NCBI GenBank assembly: GCA_026025795.1
Contig: JAPEUG010000131.1
Span: forward strand, 1 to 38,924
DNA length: 38,924 nucleotides
Reading direction: 5' to 3'
DNA from: Thelocarpon superellum
Taxonomy: Eukaryota
The notes under the pieces are model-generated. The model made no database searches. It saw nothing but the letters and a program-made list of their open reading frames with translations, and had not been told where the DNA came from. Within the stretch, counting starts at the first letter, position 1. Each line of letters begins with the position of its first letter. The position numbers and the translations under genes were made by a program. Below, in pieces: positions 5,742 to 19,402 of this stretch.

Positions 5742-6796
5742 TTACTGCGACTTTTGTGCCTTGGCCAGTTTCCGTTCCTTCCGCTTCCGCGTCGCCTCCG
5801 GTCCAGACTCGGTGTCCAGCATGTAGTCCCACCAGCGAAAGCTACTTGAGTAGTTGCCGATGAACTTCTCGTGGTGCACGTCGTGGTGCTCCGCCCCCGC
5901 CCAGAAGGGCAGGAAGTGGTGAAGGCTCCACGGGAACTCATAACCACTGTGGGCGTCGATCGCTTGGAAGAGCCGCAGCGTGATCCAGACATAGACGGTC
6001 AAGATGTGCAAATTCCGGGTGATGCCGCAGTAAAGGAGGGGCGGGGTAATGGTGCCCAGCGCCAGGATGAGCACTTCGAGCGGCGACGCGTATTCTGCCG
6101 CCAGCCCGAATGGCGCCGAGTATTGGTGGTGAATCTTGTGAATGTTCTTGTAGAGCGGGCCCCAGTGCAATGCCCGATGGAACCAGTAATGCCAGGTATC
6201 TTCCAACACGAAGAAGATTGGGATCTGATACGCCATGGTCAAGAGCGAGGGGAACGGCACCCCGGTATCCATGCCGAGATAATGTCCGATCGGGTGGAAG
6301 AGCCTGCGATGGTCAGCGAGGGACAGGATTGAGCTTGCTCCACGTCGACCTACCAGATTCCTGGCAGCTCGACCAGGAAGTGGCTCAAGAGCACCAGTCT
6401 GGCGCAATTCCATTGTTCTTGCATCGTCGGGATTTTGGCCTGGTTTTGGGTCAGCCATCCGACTTCCACCTCCTGTGGGAACGGTCTGCGTACATGTTGA
6501 ATCTTGTATCGGTTGAAGTAGGGAATTTGGTCAATGATCATCCATGGTATCGACCGGCCAAAGTACACGATCTCGTGCATCAGAAAGGACAAGACCCCCG
6601 TCGCGATGACATCGTTTTGCACGTATGCATACCACGCGGCCCATAGCCTCTCCAAGACGTTCAGGTGGACGTTGTATTTGCTGATCTCATCAAACACCCC
6701 CCAATACGACTGGGGCGTGGAGAACACGCCGGTGGAGTTCCTGTGGCGCCAATATCAGCCAGCGGCTCGGCCGCTCATGTGCCGGACCACCTACAT
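5742..6796 (-). CDS. ERG25: C-4 methylsterol oxidase (sterol desaturase family)
   Basis: Exons 6796-6795 (AT), 6740-6494, 6439-6354 and 6303-5742. His boxes [20 protein letters not shown] and HHDVHH, the [11 protein letters not shown] motif and a Lys-rich C-terminus are present. Confidence 0.95.
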
Positions 6797-7382
6797 CTCG
6801 TCACCACGTCCACGATGTTGGCTGCGTGGAGAAGGAAACACACAGAGACGGTCGACCGGCAGGAAAGGATGGTGAAGAGCAGTGCAATCGGTGCAGCGGC
6901 AGACCGTGAAGGCGAGGGCTTTGATTCCGCTCCCGCCGAACCATCTCGGATCTATGTCGTCCCGAGACGGATCTTACCGAATTTCGCGCGAGCGCCCTCT
7001 GCATTTCTGGGTCACCGTAGCGACGCGACGGCATGTCTGGCCCTCATCGCCACCCGGACAGTGACGCCATGTCCCCGGCCAAGCTCACGGCGGCACATTA
7101 TTGATTTGTGGTGCCAGTGGATGCTGCAGCCCCTGCCGCATGTTTGGGAGATCCCCTTGACATATTTGATTACTACAATTTGATCCCGAAGCGTCTCGCT
7201 CACCGACTATTCTACCCTACATCTCCGAGGAGCCATCTTTCAGTCGTTCCGCGTCTGTCGGACCACTGCAATTTCTCCCGCTGCCTTGTTTTGGTGACCT
7301 CGGTGACGAGCCAGCTTGTGAATGAAGGCACGTCACGATCTGGGATGACCGTGGCTGCTGCTGGAGGTACTGGGCCACCGTC

Positions 7383-14001: not shown

Positions 14002-16338
14002 ATGGCGGCCAACACTCGCTCGTACACTGTGCGGCCTTTCTCCAAGCCGCCGCATTCGGATCTCAGTGATGCGTTGCGGATCTTTCTTTCTCCTGCCGTA
14101 TGCTGGCTACACGAGCTTGACGCCGGCGACCCATGTGATATAATCAAAGATGGTATTCCTTGTGGGACTGCCGTGGCATGGCCTGCTTCCGAAAAGATTC
14201 AAGATCAAGTCGTGCAGACCTCCAAAGTCTTGCAGCGGTCCTTTGGCCTCAGCCTCGGGGACAAGATTTCAATTCGCAAGAGAGATCGTCCGCTGGAAGT
14301 GGCAAGCGAAATCTACCTGCAGGACATCACGCCTCCCACCGCAGAGGCCACATCTCTTTCCACAGAGCGGGACAAGGAAAACGCTCATTGGGAGTGGTTC
14401 CTCGAATATCCTCTAGGTAGCGGCCCTCGTCCCTCGTACATGACCACCCACTTATCTGCTTCACTCGCAGGGAAAGTCGGCGTCGTAGCTTCTAGCATGA
14501 TCCTCGAAAACTTGGAGGCCAAGAGCATCCGACGCAGCTTTCGCATTCATCATATTGATGGCGACCACTCCATTGCGCAGCTCAGTTCGACGATTCGAGT
14601 GCACATTCTGCCACCTTCCGTGCCCTCTAACGGCTTCGCCGCCAAGTCGCTGGAGATTACGCCGACGAGTATTGGAGGCCTTCGAGTACAGATCGAGAGG
14701 CTGAACAAGGTCTTGAAGGCGTGTGATGATCCCTTGGAGGCCGATCATTCCTGGTTCACGAGACCTGCTGGTCTACTCCTGTACGGCGCCAAAGGCACCG
14801 GCAAGACCATGATTCTGGACCGGATTGCCGCAACGTCTTGGGGGACGGTGTTCCGCATTGATTTTCCGCGGACTGCCATGGCCATTCGAAAGACGTTTGC
14901 AGAGGCGCGCAAGTCCCAACGGAGCATCATCATCTTTGACCACCTCGAGACATTGATCTCAAAAGGGGGTGCGCCTTCCGGCGAAGGTGACGCTGCGGTA
15001 GTGCTGAGCAGCGAGATGAAATGCTTGAACACATCGCTCGAAGGCCCCCAAATTCTTGTGGTCGGAGCCACAAACCGGATCGCTGACCTCGATGAGACTT
15101 TACGATCTCCAGGACCCTTTGAATTCGAAATCGAGATTCCGATTCCAGATGCAGTCGCCCGTGTCGAGATTCTCAAATCTATTACAAAGACTCCGCCGGA
15201 CGCCATTGATCCCCTGCTTGAAGACCTAGGCCAGCGATCCCACGGTTATACGGGGGCTGACTTACGGATCCTGCTACGCACCGCGAACTGTGAGGCTGCG
15301 GACCGTCGGCGGCGTCATCACGTCGAAACAGATGGCCCTTCCTTAACTAACATCGGCGATGGCCACGACACTGCACATGGTCTCCTAGGCGTCGACGTGG
15401 ACCAGGCCATGCTACGCATTCGACCCAGTGCGATGCGTGAAATTTTCCTGGAAGTTCCCGCCATCAAGTGGTCTGATATCGGTGGCCAAGAGGAGATCAA
15501 GCGATCTCTTACTGAAGCCGTAGAATGGCCAATCAAGGTAAAGCTCGTCTTCCTTGGGCTTTCATGGACCATGATGCTGATCGTGCCGTAGTACCCCGCT
15601 CGTATGCATCGACTCGGCATCGAACCAAAAAAGGGCCTTTTACTCTATGGTCCGCCGGGATGTTCCAAGACCTTGACGGCCAAGGCGCTGGCGACTGAAG
15701 CTGGATTCAACTTCATCGCCGTGAAAGGGCCGGAGCTCCTGAGCATGTACGTGGGGGAATCCGAGCGCGCCCTACGCAATGTGTTTGAAAAAGCGCGAGC
15801 GGCCAGTCCCAGCATCATCTTCTTCGACGAGATTGACACCATCGCTAGCCGTCGAGAAGATCGGCACAGCAGTGGCTTGCACTGCCTGGAAACCCTGCTG
15901 AACGAGATGGATGGGATCGAGACGTTAAACGGCGTCTTTGTCCTCGCCGCCACCAACAAACCCGACATGCTTGACACGGCGCTGCTCCGACCTGGACGCT
16001 TTGATTCCGTCCTCTACGTCGGCCCACCTGATCTCCTGGCCCGACGCGACATCCTTCGCGCTCACGCCCGCAAGATGGACATTGATGAGACGGTGGATAT
16101 CGATCAACTAGCCCAGTCAATGGATGGCCACTCGGGTGCGGAGATTGTGGAGATCTGCAAGAAGGCCGGGTACCTTGCCTTTCACGACTCGGTCAGCAAT
16201 GAATCCGAGGTACAAATCAGCCATAGACACTTTGACTTGGCCATGGACCAAGTACCACGCCAAATATCACCGGGACTACGGCAAAAGTATGAACGGTGGC
16301 GTGCGGGAGGATTTAGGGACGACGATTCCTCCTCATGA
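14002..16338 (+). CDS. AFG2: AFG2/Drg1 (SPATA5)-like double-ring AAA+ ATPase
   Basis: Exons 14002-14416, 14471-15537 and 15592-16338. The D1-D2 linker IRPSAMREIFLEVP.IKWSDIGGQ is present. D2 has GPPGCSKTLTAKALATE (the CSKT variant typical of Afg2), IIFFDEID and ALLRPGRFD. Confidence 0.85.
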
Positions 16339-17061: not shown

Positions 17062-18221
17062 TCACCGCCTGCCGCCCGGCCGCCGCGTTCGGCTCCGACT
17101 TCGGCTCCGATCACTGTAGCTGCTGTAGGTACTGTAACTGGGGCTTCGCCTCCGACGGGCCCCACGCGGTGGGCTTTCTCGTCGACCGCCACCATATCGT
17201 CGTCGAGGTCCTCGCGAGCGGGAGCGAGAGCGGGATCGGGACGAGAAGGACGGAGATCGACGGCGACGTGGAGGAGGAGGCGAACGCGAGCGGGAGTATG
17301 AGCGGGGACGGTAGGTATCGGGGTCCCGGCCCCGTGGCTCCGGCCCCCCGAATCGTCTCGGGGAGCTGCGGCGTCCCGGGGGTGGTGAACGGTAGCGACC
17401 TCCTCCAGCACCTCCGTACCCGGATGGAGGACCGCGATATCCTCCGCCTGGTGGACCATTGCGAGGCTCGAACCGCTCAAAGTTCGGCCCGGCGCGTCGT
17501 GCCGGTGGCGGCGACCGCGAGAATTTGCGACGCGGCAACACGATGGATACACTGATGACTGCCCCGTCAACCTGCGACTCATGCATGTGCGCAATGGCTG
17601 CTTCGGCATCTGCCGTCGTCCCGTAGACAATGTACGCCGTTCCGCGATTCGTCATGACTATGGCGTATCAGTACGAGCTGTCATCTCATCACGCGACCTC
17701 ACTCACACTGTCGATTCATCGGCATATCCAGATCCCGTATCACGCCGTATGCACCAAAGATTTCCTTCAAATGCCCCTCATTGACGTTTTTGGTGAGTTT
17801 CTCCACCACAATCTAGACGTCATCATTATCAGCAGCCGCCATCGCCCTGCTAGCTGCGTCACACCATTTCGGCCTTCCCACTCACCTTCGAGCTCGTTGA
17901 TGCGGGACTGATGCTCCGTCGGCGATTGACGCTCCTCGTGCGGCTTCGACTCCGGTACCGTTGTCCGACGCGTTCACGACTCCGGCTGCGAGACGGACTT
18001 CGACTCGGGCTGGCGCTGTAGCCTCTCCTGCCTCGGAAACCATTGCGACGTCGACCCCCACGGGAGGCAGATGATCGCGCTGGAGACCTCGAGCGCGACC
18101 GGGAACGTGGGGTGATGGACCGACGTGGAGAAGCTGATCTTGACACGCTGCGCACGCGACCTGCTCCGACTGCTGGGGAACGGGACAGCGATCGACCGCG
18201 ATGCCGAGGTGATCCTGCCAT
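17062..18221 (-). CDS. RNPS1: RNPS1-like SR/RRM protein (exon junction/ASAP complex)
   Basis: Exons 18221-17886, 17812-17707 and 17657-17062. An RS-rich N-terminus precedes the RRM IVVEKLTKNVNEGHLKEIFGAYG.I.DLDMPMNRQFMTNRGTAYI...AEAAIAHMHESQVDGAVISVSIV, then an RS/RP-rich C-terminus. Confidence 0.85.
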
Positions 18222-18500
18222 GGTTGTTTAATGTCTGAGGATGCTCCGATCGCTGTTGTGGATAAAAGTGAAGCGTATGCTCGCTTGAAGACGTCTAAAT
18301 CGCGTTCGGCTTCGCGCCTTTGAGCCAATTTGGAAGCAAGCTAACCACTGCACAAAGACAACAAAACCATACCAAAGGGCGCGGTTAATAGTGACCTCTC
18401 CATCTGAAATGGTTGCTGCTCGAACATGCCTAAGGATACCTAAATTTTCATTCTTGGCCCTGTAGTAACCCTTTACGATACTCCAGGCTACTCGGACACC

Positions 18501-18506
18501 AAAAAA
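18501..18506 (-). terminator. RNA polymerase III terminator (T6) of the tRNA gene
   Basis: TTTTTT on the minus strand begins 3 nt after discriminator A73. Confidence 0.8.
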
Positions 18507-18508
18507 CT

Positions 18509-18630
18509 TGCCCACTTTGAGAATCGAACTCAACACCTCATCATTACTCTGTGTGAGGCGTTAGCATAACTGGACCCACGGCGAACAGAATGTCTTACAG
18601 TGATGCGCTCTACCGATGAGCTAAGCGGGC
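18509..18630 (-). tRNA. tRNA-Thr(AGT) interrupted by a 50-nt intron (18598-18549) with spliceosomal signals
   Basis: Minus strand: acceptor GCCCGCT/AGTGGGC+A, D-arm GCTC-ATCGGTA-GAGC, anticodon stem CATCA/TGATG, variable loop AGGTG, T-arm TTGAG-TTCGATT-CTCAA. It is 72 nt after intron removal, with loop CT-AGT-AA. The G1:C72 and C2:G71 pairs fit Thr. Confidence 0.9.
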
Positions 18631-19402
18631 ATTCACTTGTCCGCTCCTTTCCCAGGAGAGCCCGCCACCTGCTGCACCATTCTGCCTTTCAGGTGGCAAT
18701 GGGGCCGTCAAGACAATACCTAAACAAACCTGAGGAAAACTGCGGACTCGAGCGCGAACTGGTCCAGCGTCATCTTGGTTCACCCTCCAACGTGCCTTGT
18801 GGACATGAAAAAGGATATCACGGGTCCCATAAGTTGCACATGCAGAGAATGACGTCCATACAAAGTGCCGTTCAGATACTTTGTCTTGCAACAATGTAGA
18901 CGTGAGGCGTCGGGCGCTGTCATGCCGTGAACGGGTGCCCTCCAGGCCGCCGCTTAACTCGCGGCGATAGATTGCGCCGACCCCGACGGAGCTATCGCGG
19001 GTTACTCGTACGAGAAGGAATACTCCAAGCTTCGTCTCGCTAGCACCGAATGGCCTACGCCACACCCGCGAACGACGCAACGCGCGTCTGGTTACGCACG
19101 TTCATCTTGGCGGAGGATACGCAACCCGACGCACGGCTGCGCAACGTAGTCCTCGGACGGCCGAGAGAGGGGCAATGCTGCTGGGTCCAGGCAGCCGTAC
19201 AAGTGCACGTCAACGCCACATGAGTCGCACTCTGGCAAGAAAATATTTAAGTCGGATGCAGGTGCTACGACATTCTTTCTTCACCTCGTCGACACTTTTG
19301 CGCGCGTCTGATATCATCTTATCGACTCCTCTTGATTCCCTCTACTGCATCCACACTCAAGTCTGTTGAACTTGACACTGCTTTCTATCGCACTTCTATA
19401 CC

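Follow-up and report, generated by a model that had tools for sequence, protein, structure and literature searches.

A nuclear tRNA gene whose anticodon loop is interrupted by 50 bases resembling a short mRNA intron raises the question of whether a tRNA can carry, and be matured through the removal of, an intron of the spliceosomal type. The gene lies on the minus strand of a contig (JAPEUG010000131.1, assembly GCA_026025795.1; 38,924 nucleotides, analysed as a whole and referred to here as the window) from Thelocarpon superellum, a lichen-forming fungus of the Pezizomycotina (order Thelocarpales), and the ERG25 protein encoded in the window is identical to a record that NCBI assigns to this species; this exact match superseded a protein-based taxon hint, in which Basidiomycota had been commonest. 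The original prediction had proposed a tRNA-Thr(AGT) gene split by a spliceosomal intron between tRNA positions 33 and 34, and had noted no known description of such an intron in a tRNA gene. A literature search is consistent with this, in that no published spliceosomal intron in a tRNA gene was found. Eukaryotic tRNA introns are described as undergoing protein-only removal at positions 37/38 (PMC10485636, PMC12530127), and the non-coding genes with spliceosomal introns named in the relevant part of a 2018 review are those for U1, U2, U5, U6, and rRNA, with no tRNA gene among them (PMC5855946).

An interrupted tRNA gene

The letters of the gene (18630-18509, minus strand) match those quoted in the original prediction exactly. 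The Rfam tRNA model (RF00005) matches the interrupted gene over its full length (model positions 1-71 of 71; 49.9 bits, E 6.4e-08; gathering score, 29), and this is the sole Rfam match in the window. With the -i option, ARAGORN predicts a tRNA spanning 18508-18631 whose intron measures 50 bases; with default settings it reports 0 tRNAs in the window, so that the gene is visible only with -i. Excision of 18598-18549 in silico yields a 72-base cloverleaf with the anticodon loop CT-AGT-AA, as had been claimed. All of the stem pairs are standard after excision when the cloverleaf is constrained (21/21; 20 Watson-Crick and 1 G-U), and the 7-base loop of the excised tRNA contains T33, AGT, and A37. 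The minimum-energy fold of the precursor, with the insert still in place, disrupts the anticodon stem (z -2.67).

Both box regions, A and B, are exonic, and six T follow at 18506-18501, bearing out the boxes and terminator originally described, and a sequence scan found no TTTT within the precursor (Table 1). Beside these polymerase III features, the locus has a polymerase II gene on the same strand, an RNPS1-like gene whose start is 287 bases downstream of the tRNA gene.

Table 1. Coordinates of the interrupted tRNA gene and of its candidate splice signals in the window.
Feature	Position	Strand	Details and basis
Whole interrupted tRNA gene	18509..18630	-	122 bases, 72 without the insert; Rfam RF00005, ARAGORN -i
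5' exon, tRNA positions 1-33	18599..18630	-	32 bases, without position 17; ends C32 T33; A-box region; sequence, constrained cloverleaf
Insert at tRNA positions 33/34, interpreted as a spliceosomal-type GT-AG intron	18549..18598	-	50 bases; register table, Monte Carlo
Donor-like GTAAGA	18593..18598	-	Fits GTRNGN type; sequence
Branch-site-like TGCTAAC, candidate branch A at 18561	18560..18566	-	11 bases after the motif, 12 after the A; sequence
Acceptor-like CAG	18549..18551	-	Sequence
3' exon	18509..18548	-	Anticodon AGT, A37, A38, anticodon-stem 3' strand, variable loop, T arm (B-box region), acceptor 3' strand, A73; sequence, cloverleaf
T6 run, Pol III terminator-like	18501..18506	-	Two bases past the discriminator; sequence

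In an independent contig build of reads from the same genome, the insert is present at full depth, with a 1626-base contig running over 17933-19300 with 0 mismatches, and none of the aligned contigs of the same genome skips the 50 bases. As this build may itself be the source of the assembly, its support for the insert argues only against an assembly artefact. Introner-like copies were also sought, and no second copy of the 50-base insert or of either exon was found within the window.

Splice register and identity of the tRNA

The two ends of the insert have similar letters, which makes the splice register ambiguous. There are six registers in which a 50-base excision leaves a 7-base loop, and these give the anticodons AGT, GGT, GTT, and, three times, GTA. 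Infernal aligns the insert after CUGUAA, at the canonical 37/38 site, which results in the anticodon GTA, and ARAGORN (-i) sets it at 35/36, which results in GTT. A threonine anticodon is left only by the 33/34 and 34/35 registers, and the insert has GT..AG ends only at 33/34. The position proposed originally, 33/34, therefore stands in so far as it agrees with the GT..AG ends and with a threonine body; it is not the unique solution, as Infernal and ARAGORN choose others. At 33/34 only 1/4 helix pairs of a bulge-helix-bulge is present and the motif (a four-pair helix with two three-base bulges) is not formed. In the 37/38 register, 3/4 pairs occur in the helix beside the splice sites, including that of C32 with the G at intron base -3 (the A-I pair). 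Excision at 37/38, as expected of a TSEN-type intron, does not leave a coherent tRNA, the result being a tRNA with a GTA anticodon and G1-C72 whose body is like that of Thr(UGU) genes. Judged from the sequence, 33/34 is the only one of the registers that fits the tRNA body.

At the end of its acceptor stem the tRNA gene carries G1-C72 and A73. Eukaryotic Asn tRNAs, like those of bacteria, have G73. Under the identity rules given in PMC9976931, eukaryotic tRNA-Tyr is recognised by C1-G72 plus A73, tRNA-Asn by the anticodon plus G73 (shown for bacteria), and tRNA-Thr by the anticodon and pairs of the acceptor stem, A73 also being important in yeast. Two other assignments were considered and rejected by these rules: tRNA-Tyr, which follows from the GTA anticodon of Infernal's 37/38 alignment, is ruled against by G1-C72, the Tyr rule being C1-G72 (PMC9976931), and tRNA-Asn, which follows from ARAGORN's GTT, is ruled against by an A discriminator in the place of G73, with the G73 rule itself bacterial (PMC9976931).

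A Thr(UGU) look-alike in the same genome has exons that are ~90% identical to those of the interrupted gene (mismatches at 3/31 and 5/36 bases, 8/67 in all), and 3 of its mismatches appear to fall in the 5' strand of the anticodon stem. From T33 to A44 this paralogue consists of TGT, A37, a 10-base insert, A38, and the stem strand, and it thus has a canonical 37/38 intron; another organism of the same study has a comparable Thr(UGU) gene, in which the insert is 11 bases long. The threonine assignment of the original prediction is upheld by G1-C72, A73, the ~90% identical paralogue, and the AGT anticodon left at 33/34, and reading the gene as threonine-type, Thr(AGU), is supported.

Splice-like signals and their chance expectation

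The donor, branch site, and acceptor were found in the 50-base insert as originally described. The insert has the features of a U2-type GT-AG intron, namely GT in a GTRNGN donor, a CTRAY branch site, a YAG end, and a length in the range of the host, and its exact removal restores the product in silico only. In the window, four mRNA introns could be verified, two in ERG25 (50 and 54 bases; exact mapping of the deposited protein) and two in the RNPS1-like gene (49 and 73 bases; homologue alignment), and a fifth of 54 bases (15538-15591) is probable. The size of the insert had been likened to that of these introns, and its 50 bases do lie within the verified lengths (49, 50, 54, and 73). The verified introns (n = 4) start with GTAGGT, GTACGC, and, twice, GTGAGT, possess a CTGAC or CTGAT branch site with 9-16 bases after the A, and end in CAG or TAG. 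Introns were also predicted by ORF joining, an approach that returned 500 candidates, mostly spurious, and was replaced by the protein-guided mapping.

The chance expectation of the signals was estimated with random inserts from a first-order Markov model of the window (n = 400,000), each scored in the six registers. A donor, branch site, and acceptor were found together in any of the six registers for 21/400,000 simulated inserts, and the same trio with an NGT anticodon and a purine at position 37 for 1/400,000. When GTAA was granted (a Tyr anticodon plus A37), 121/400,000 inserts had the trio and 6/400,000 also had a threonine loop. A loosely defined intron pattern was not enriched in the window, whether in its strict version (24 matches vs 22.6 +/- 6.3 in 100 Markov simulations) or as first formulated, when the window had fewer matches than mononucleotide shuffles (50 vs 94); the weight lies with the fixed-boundary test alone.

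A look-up of sequencing runs containing 18300-18900 listed no RNA run, and the four runs compared with the locus were all DNA contigs. Searches for homologues were empty within their scope. A metagenome pattern scan for look-alikes interrupted by one gap of 35-65 bases recovered 0 loci, with the D-arm and variable-loop letters fixed so that it would miss diverged relatives, and a scan for look-alikes that were uninterrupted or had inserts of up to 30 bases, with the same letters fixed, likewise recovered 0 loci. Contigs from two further organisms in this study yielded no intron-bearing homologue, and those of organisms B and C and of a moss metagenome no Thr(AGT) look-alike with or without an intron; the contig comparison could detect only genes at least 80% alike, and gaps in such contigs are no proof of absence.

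Proposed maturation of the tRNA and competing explanations

We would give about even chances to the reading that this is a nuclear tRNA-Thr(AGU) gene that acquired a U2-type GT-AG intron at 33/34 and that produces a working, spliceosome-dependent tRNA. More tentatively, the spliceosome may mature a polymerase III pre-tRNA at this locus, in which case production of tRNA-Thr(AGU) would depend on mRNA-type splicing. The precursor would most likely be made by RNA polymerase III, as suggested by the box regions in the exons, the absence of an internal T4, and the T6 after the gene. The spliceosome would recognise GTAAGA, TGCTAAC, and CAG, the 50 bases would leave as a lariat, and T33 would be joined to A34; this joining would restore the CT-AGT-AA loop and the standard cloverleaf, as seen in silico, and RNase P, RNase Z, and CCA addition would complete the tRNA. 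In a variant of this scheme, the tRNA would be spliced inside a polymerase II transcript running into the downstream RNPS1-like gene. The intron probably arose through reverse splicing into an abundant RNA and subsequent copying back to DNA, the route thought to have given rise to the ectopic introns of fungal snRNA and lichen rRNA genes.

Several features of the locus are less easily accommodated by spliceosomal removal. The donor and the anticodon stem are separated by 2 bases, in an RNA that is short and strongly folded, and we are aware of no study testing whether spliceosomes assemble on a substrate of this kind. The exon junction (ACT/AGT) also counts against this reading, as we take it not to be a typical proto-splice site. 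Further, with the helix at 37/38 3/4 paired, including the A-I pair, the endonuclease might cut the precursor first. Protein-only removal at 33/34 itself is unlikely, with 1/4 helix pairs at that position and the four-subunit TSEN of fungi described as removing only 37/38 introns (PMC10485636).

The intron may be truly of the spliceosomal type and the gene dead or idle, its polymerase III transcript remaining unspliced or rarely spliced as other Thr(AGU) genes do the work. Such a gene would account for the splice signals equally well, and the empty conservation search (metagenome scans and same-study contigs) is in line with it, but we consider it unlikely: the exons are undecayed, with 21/21 stem pairs, a full-length Rfam match of 49.9 bits, the T6 intact, and no TTTT inside, although this is weak counter-evidence because a recent insertion would look equally intact, and the removal of introns from non-polymerase II transcripts of lichen rDNA, as described in PMC8527467, implies that ectopic introns need not kill a gene. 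Decay would go further if the locus were a pseudogene with a chance resemblance to a split tRNA, for example a Thr(UGU)-type copy that lost T34 and whose intron grew, with coincidental signals. The body is indeed nearest to Thr(UGU) genes, the 31-base words of the gene appear to be unique in the genome (one contig runs through unbroken), and chance alone yields many loose intron-like patterns in this GC-rich window; however, signals locked in position together with a threonine anticodon arose in 1/400,000 simulated inserts, or 6/400,000 with GTAA fixed, and the cloverleaf, box regions, and terminator are all intact, which leaves a chance look-alike with a very low probability.

An ordinary endonuclease intron at 37/38, with TSEN cutting after A37 to leave the loop CT-GTA-AA and thereby either a tRNA with a tyrosine anticodon or a useless chimera, is in our judgement improbable. 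It would be in keeping with Infernal's placement of the insert after CUGUAA, the 3/4 helix pairs including that of C32 to intron base -3, the canonical intron of the Thr(UGU) paralogue, and the account of fungal TSEN as measuring from the mature domain (PMC10485636). Nevertheless, G1-C72 conflicts with the C1-G72 of eukaryotic Tyr (PMC9976931), and, with a body like that of Thr(UGU) and an anticodon that ThrRS reads (PMC9976931), the product would fit neither synthetase well. Even with GTAA granted, the trio and a threonine loop coincided in only 6/400,000 simulated inserts, and the insert has 50 bases compared to 10 and 11 in the Thr(UGU) relatives.

For the preferred reading, a gene dependent on the spliceosome, partial precedents come from other non-coding genes of fungi. 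mRNA-type introns in U6 snRNA genes are reported from many fungi, Schizosaccharomyces pombe among them (Tani and Ohshima 1989, 1991; Canzler et al. 2016, cited in PMC5855946), and U6 is a polymerase III product (10.1101/2023.01.27.525755). As in the preferred reading of the present case, these are short GT-AG introns with a branch site in the gene for a small non-coding polymerase III RNA, gained, it is thought, via reverse splicing and with sequences that are not conserved between species. U6 differs in being located at the catalytic centre of the spliceosome, a position that explains it as a target of reverse splicing, and a tRNA has no such proximity. In lichen-forming ascomycetes, ectopic spliceosomal introns are reported from nuclear rDNA (Bhattacharya et al. 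2000, cited in PMC8527467), and yeast is described as excising a 57-base rDNA intron of Cladonia grayi correctly from polymerase I transcripts (PMC8527467). The two cases share a lichen mycobiont as host, a gene that, most likely also here, is outside the polymerase II set, and a short spliceosomal-type intron of similar size (57 vs 50 bases), but the rDNA introns occupy many-copy polymerase I genes and their removal is demonstrated, whereas the present case is a single tRNA gene that has polymerase III signals and for which intron removal is predicted.

Compared to canonical introns removed by TSEN and tRNA ligase (PMC10485636), the insert is alike in occupying the anticodon loop of a nuclear tRNA gene, in having a paralogue, Thr(UGU), with such an intron, and in formally allowing a 37/38 parse, but its functional register would be 33/34, without a bulge-helix-bulge. 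Canonical introns need no donor, branch site, or acceptor, all of which the insert carries, and excision at 37/38 would here combine a tyrosine anticodon with a threonine-type body that has G1-C72. The non-canonical tRNA introns of archaea and some red algae are bounded by a bulge-helix-bulge, and the endonuclease that removes them reads local structure. Occurrence of tRNA introns at non-canonical positions is attributed to archaea and some red algae (PMC10485636), and these introns resemble the present insert in lying outside 37/38 and in being missed or misread by standard eukaryotic tRNA-finding settings; they differ from it in that the insert lacks the bulge-helix-bulge and has spliceosomal signals.

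Reviews keep tRNA introns and spliceosomal introns apart, and a tRNA that requires the spliceosome, if confirmed, would break this division. Genes of this kind would be given a wrong name (here Tyr or Asn) by tRNA finders limited to 37/38 introns, and further examples may be concealed in fungal genomes behind what look like gaps or odd 'chimeric' tRNAs. If the reading is correct, the locus would offer a small, easily assayed natural substrate for the spliceosome on an uncapped, tightly folded polymerase III transcript, and it would bear on the origin of new introns, for instance by reverse splicing into abundant RNAs. tRNA would join the few kinds of non-coding RNA gene into which spliceosomal introns have spread, and, together with the rDNA cases, lichen-fungal spliceosomal introns would occur in genes of RNA polymerases I, II, and III. 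For the fungus itself, tRNA-Thr(AGU), which after A34-to-inosine editing reads ACU and ACC, would be a tRNA in need of mRNA-type splicing.

The interrupted tRNA gene and its excision registers

The minus-strand locus at 18630-18509 is a tRNA gene with polymerase III-type features, and the letters quoted for it in the original prediction agreed exactly with the window sequence. The Rfam tRNA covariance model matched at full length (model positions 1-71 of 71; 49.9 bits, gathering score 29, E = 6.4e-08), and nothing else in the 38,924 bases of the window matched Rfam. Removal of 50 bases yielded the expected standard cloverleaf, all 21 stem pairs being standard (20 Watson-Crick, 1 G-U), and excision at 33/34 left the anticodon loop CT-AGT-AA. 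No TTTT occurred inside the scanned precursor sequence. Gene base n corresponds to window position 18631-n. The gene sits in an intergenic stretch upstream of a member of the RNPS1-like family of splicing or exon-junction factors. Where they were tested against Pfam, the two minus-strand ORFs that overlap it (18228-18560 and 18610-19101) gave no match, and they are not joined across the insert.

Coordinates of the tRNA gene, its neighbours and verified mRNA introns of the window
Feature	Position	Strand	Length (bases)	Details
5' exon	18630-18599	minus	32	last two bases C32 T33
Insert	18598-18549	minus	50	
3' exon	18548-18509	minus	40	
T6 run	18506-18501	minus		begins two bases past discriminator
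RNPS1-like gene	17065-18221	minus		RS-rich RRM protein; ATG 18221; 287 bases downstream of tRNA, same strand
DUF4646-domain ORF	begins 19376	opposite to tRNA		upstream
ERG25 intron	6304-6353		50	GTAGGT..GCTGAC..CAG; exact protein mapping
ERG25 intron	6440-6493		54	GTACGC..GCTGAC..CAG; exact protein mapping
RNPS1-like intron	17813-17885		73	GTGAGT..GCTGAT..TAG; homologue alignment
RNPS1-like intron	17658-17706		49	GTGAGT..ACTGAT..TAG; homologue alignment

The letters at both insert ends are alike, which makes the excision register ambiguous, a point absent from the original prediction. Six registers of 50-base excision leave a 7-base loop: 5' cuts at 33/34, 34/35 and 35/36 give the anticodons AGT, GGT and GTT, respectively, and cuts at 36/37, 37/38 and one base past 37/38 each give GTA. 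Infernal chose the canonical site, with the insert following CUGUAA; ARAGORN with -i reported Asn(gtt) with an intron at 35/36, and without -i it reported no tRNA in the window. Placement at 33/34 is favored by the GT..AG signals and the threonine-type body, though the register is not unique and Infernal and ARAGORN differ from it. With three different registers proposed, the identity of the tRNA body must decide.

Identity of the tRNA body

The gene has a G1-C72 pair and discriminator A73. According to passages of a 2023 review (PMC9976931), eukaryotic tyrosine identity consists of A73, C1-G72, G34 and U35, asparagine identity (demonstrated in bacteria) of the anticodon and G73, and threonine identity of acceptor-stem pairs and a threonine anticodon, A73 also having a role in yeast. 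This rules out Tyr and Asn for the body (G1-C72 versus C1-G72; A73 versus G73).

Contigs from four public runs that were at least 80% alike were compared with 17900-19300. X1, the run from the same genome, contains all sampled words, and the assembly may derive from it. Its 1626-base contig over 17933-19300 crosses the tRNA gene unbroken with 0 mismatches, so the reads carry the insert at single-copy depth, and the 31-base words of the interrupted gene appear unique in the genome. Only one other X1 contig aligns with the exons, the 428-base record 4; of 31 bases on the 3' side 3 are mismatched, and of 36 on the 5' side 5 are. Between T33 and A44 it has twenty letters of its own, which on the tRNA strand give the anticodon TGT, A37, ten bases, A38 and a stem strand of five bases; three of the five 5'-side mismatches would be the complement of that strand. 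Judged by its sequence, this contig carries a Thr(UGU) gene whose intron is of the normal kind, 10 bases at 37/38. The same form was found in the moss-metagenome run X3, and X4, from another organism in the same study, has a Thr(UGU) gene that is similar and carries 11 inserted bases. These look-alikes place the body of the interrupted gene in the threonine family, and sequence comparison identifies it as threonine-type. No contig skipping the 50 bases, as an uninterrupted twin would, was found in the four runs at 80% likeness, an absence that proves nothing.

The introns of the Thr(UGU) genes (10 bases in X1 record 4, 11 in X4 record 8) indicate that short endonuclease-type introns coexist with the 50-base insert. 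A 151-base X3 contig on 18276-18427 is identical to the window but for a single base missing at 18407; this contig and the X3 Thr(UGU) contig (records 6 and 7) have a depth of 2-3. The moss metagenome seems to contain a very close strain, with no X3 contig of it over the interrupted tRNA.

Splice signals and local introns

As predicted, in the 33/34 register the insert begins with the donor GTAAGA, has a TGCTAAC motif and ends with the acceptor CAG; 12 bases follow the candidate branch A (18561). Thelocarpon superellum belongs to the order Thelocarpales (Ascomycota, Pezizomycotina). The window ERG25 ORF equals the deposited 315-residue C-4 sterol methyl oxidase of this species (100% identity), and the closest named homologues are mostly from lichen fungi. 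The claim that many mRNA introns span 49-54 bases was fair for the few verified (49, 50, 54 and 73 bases), and the insert, with its CTAAC-type branch, matches them in size and signals. An in-frame 54-base segment on the plus strand (15538-15591, GTAAAG..GCTGAT..TAG), with a stop codon dividing two same-frame ORFs that each carry an AAA ATPase domain, is a probable further intron. The deposited ERG25 model requires a 348-base first intron (6741-7088, minus strand) next to verified introns of 49-73 bases; a 54-base alternative (6741-6794, GTAGGT..GCTGAT..CAG) uses the same acceptor, and an error in the annotated first exon (7088-7141) is possible.

A loose intron pattern was uninformative: it matched 24 times on both strands of the GC-rich window and was not enriched (22.6 +/- 6.3 expected from 100 first-order Markov simulations; 29 in the reversed sequence). 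The relevant test is one with fixed boundaries. When the space between T33 and the stem was filled 400,000 times with random 55-base sequence, donor, branch and acceptor occurred together in any of the six registers in 21 cases; with GTAA granted (anticodon GTA plus A37), this trio occurred in 121. The splice signals of the insert are position-locked. Any GTAAG donor that directly follows C32 T33 will look like a GTA anticodon, so spliceosomal removal explains the 'Tyr' look for free, and the reverse does not hold. No second copy of the insert was found in the window, and it is therefore not visibly a repeated 'introner'.

Competing readings and precedents

At 33/34 only one of four helix pairs is available, and modeling shows no bulge-helix-bulge. 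In passages of PMC10485636 the fungal endonuclease (TSEN) is described for 37/38 introns only, so a 33/34 intron in a fungus would need another machine; the same passages note that eukaryotic tRNAscan settings cover canonical introns only. We give about an even chance to the reading in which a Thr(AGU) gene acquired a spliceosomal intron and its working tRNA depends on the spliceosome. Polymerase III would transcribe the precursor, the nuclear spliceosome would remove the 50-base intron, and the usual end processing would follow; in a variant, splicing would occur inside a polymerase II transcript running toward the RNPS1-like gene. Our confidence is held at this level because scans of metagenomes for interrupted or uninterrupted look-alikes returned 0 loci in both, contigs of two other organisms of the study (B and C) yielded no insert-bearing homologue at 80% likeness, and the RNA is compact and has its donor two bases away from a stable stem, which counts against splicing. 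The insert could instead be a genuine intron within a gene copy that is idle or dead, which we consider possible but clearly less probable.

A canonical TSEN cut is unlikely: three of the four helix pairs can form in the 37/38 register, among them the A-I pair of C32 and intron base -3, and TSEN might cut the precursor on reaching it, but the product would join a G1-C72 threonine-type body to a GUA anticodon and by the identity rules would suit neither ThrRS nor TyrRS. Chance signals or a pseudogene seem more improbable still, as the trio with a threonine loop (NGT and a purine at 37) arose in 1 of the 400,000 fillings, and in 6 with GTAA granted. The unconstrained precursor fold (-42.3 kcal/mol, z -2.67 versus shuffles) pairs CCUCA, from the insert's 3' part, with the variable loop and the anticodon-stem 3' strand, while the donor region finds its partner upstream of the branch site; this pairing could hold the anticodon arm open before splicing, or be chance.

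Fungal U6 genes carry spliceosomal introns, and passages of a 2018 review add U1, U2, U5 and rRNA genes and name no tRNA gene (PMC5855946); U6 is a polymerase III transcript, as stated in 10.1101/2023.01.27.525755. The insert resembles these U6 introns in being apparently of spliceosomal type in a non-coding RNA gene with polymerase III features. Lichen fungi have ectopic spliceosomal introns in rDNA, and a 57-base Cladonia intron, close to the insert's 50 bases and likewise from a lichen fungus, was correctly excised from polymerase I transcripts in yeast (portions of PMC8527467). Both precedents make a spliceosomal intron in a tRNA gene less exotic. No description of one was found in the full-text literature searched, which covers few subscription journals, and provisionally we regard it as not in print. 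The known class is that of ectopic spliceosomal introns in non-coding RNA genes, to which the tRNA host would be the new element.
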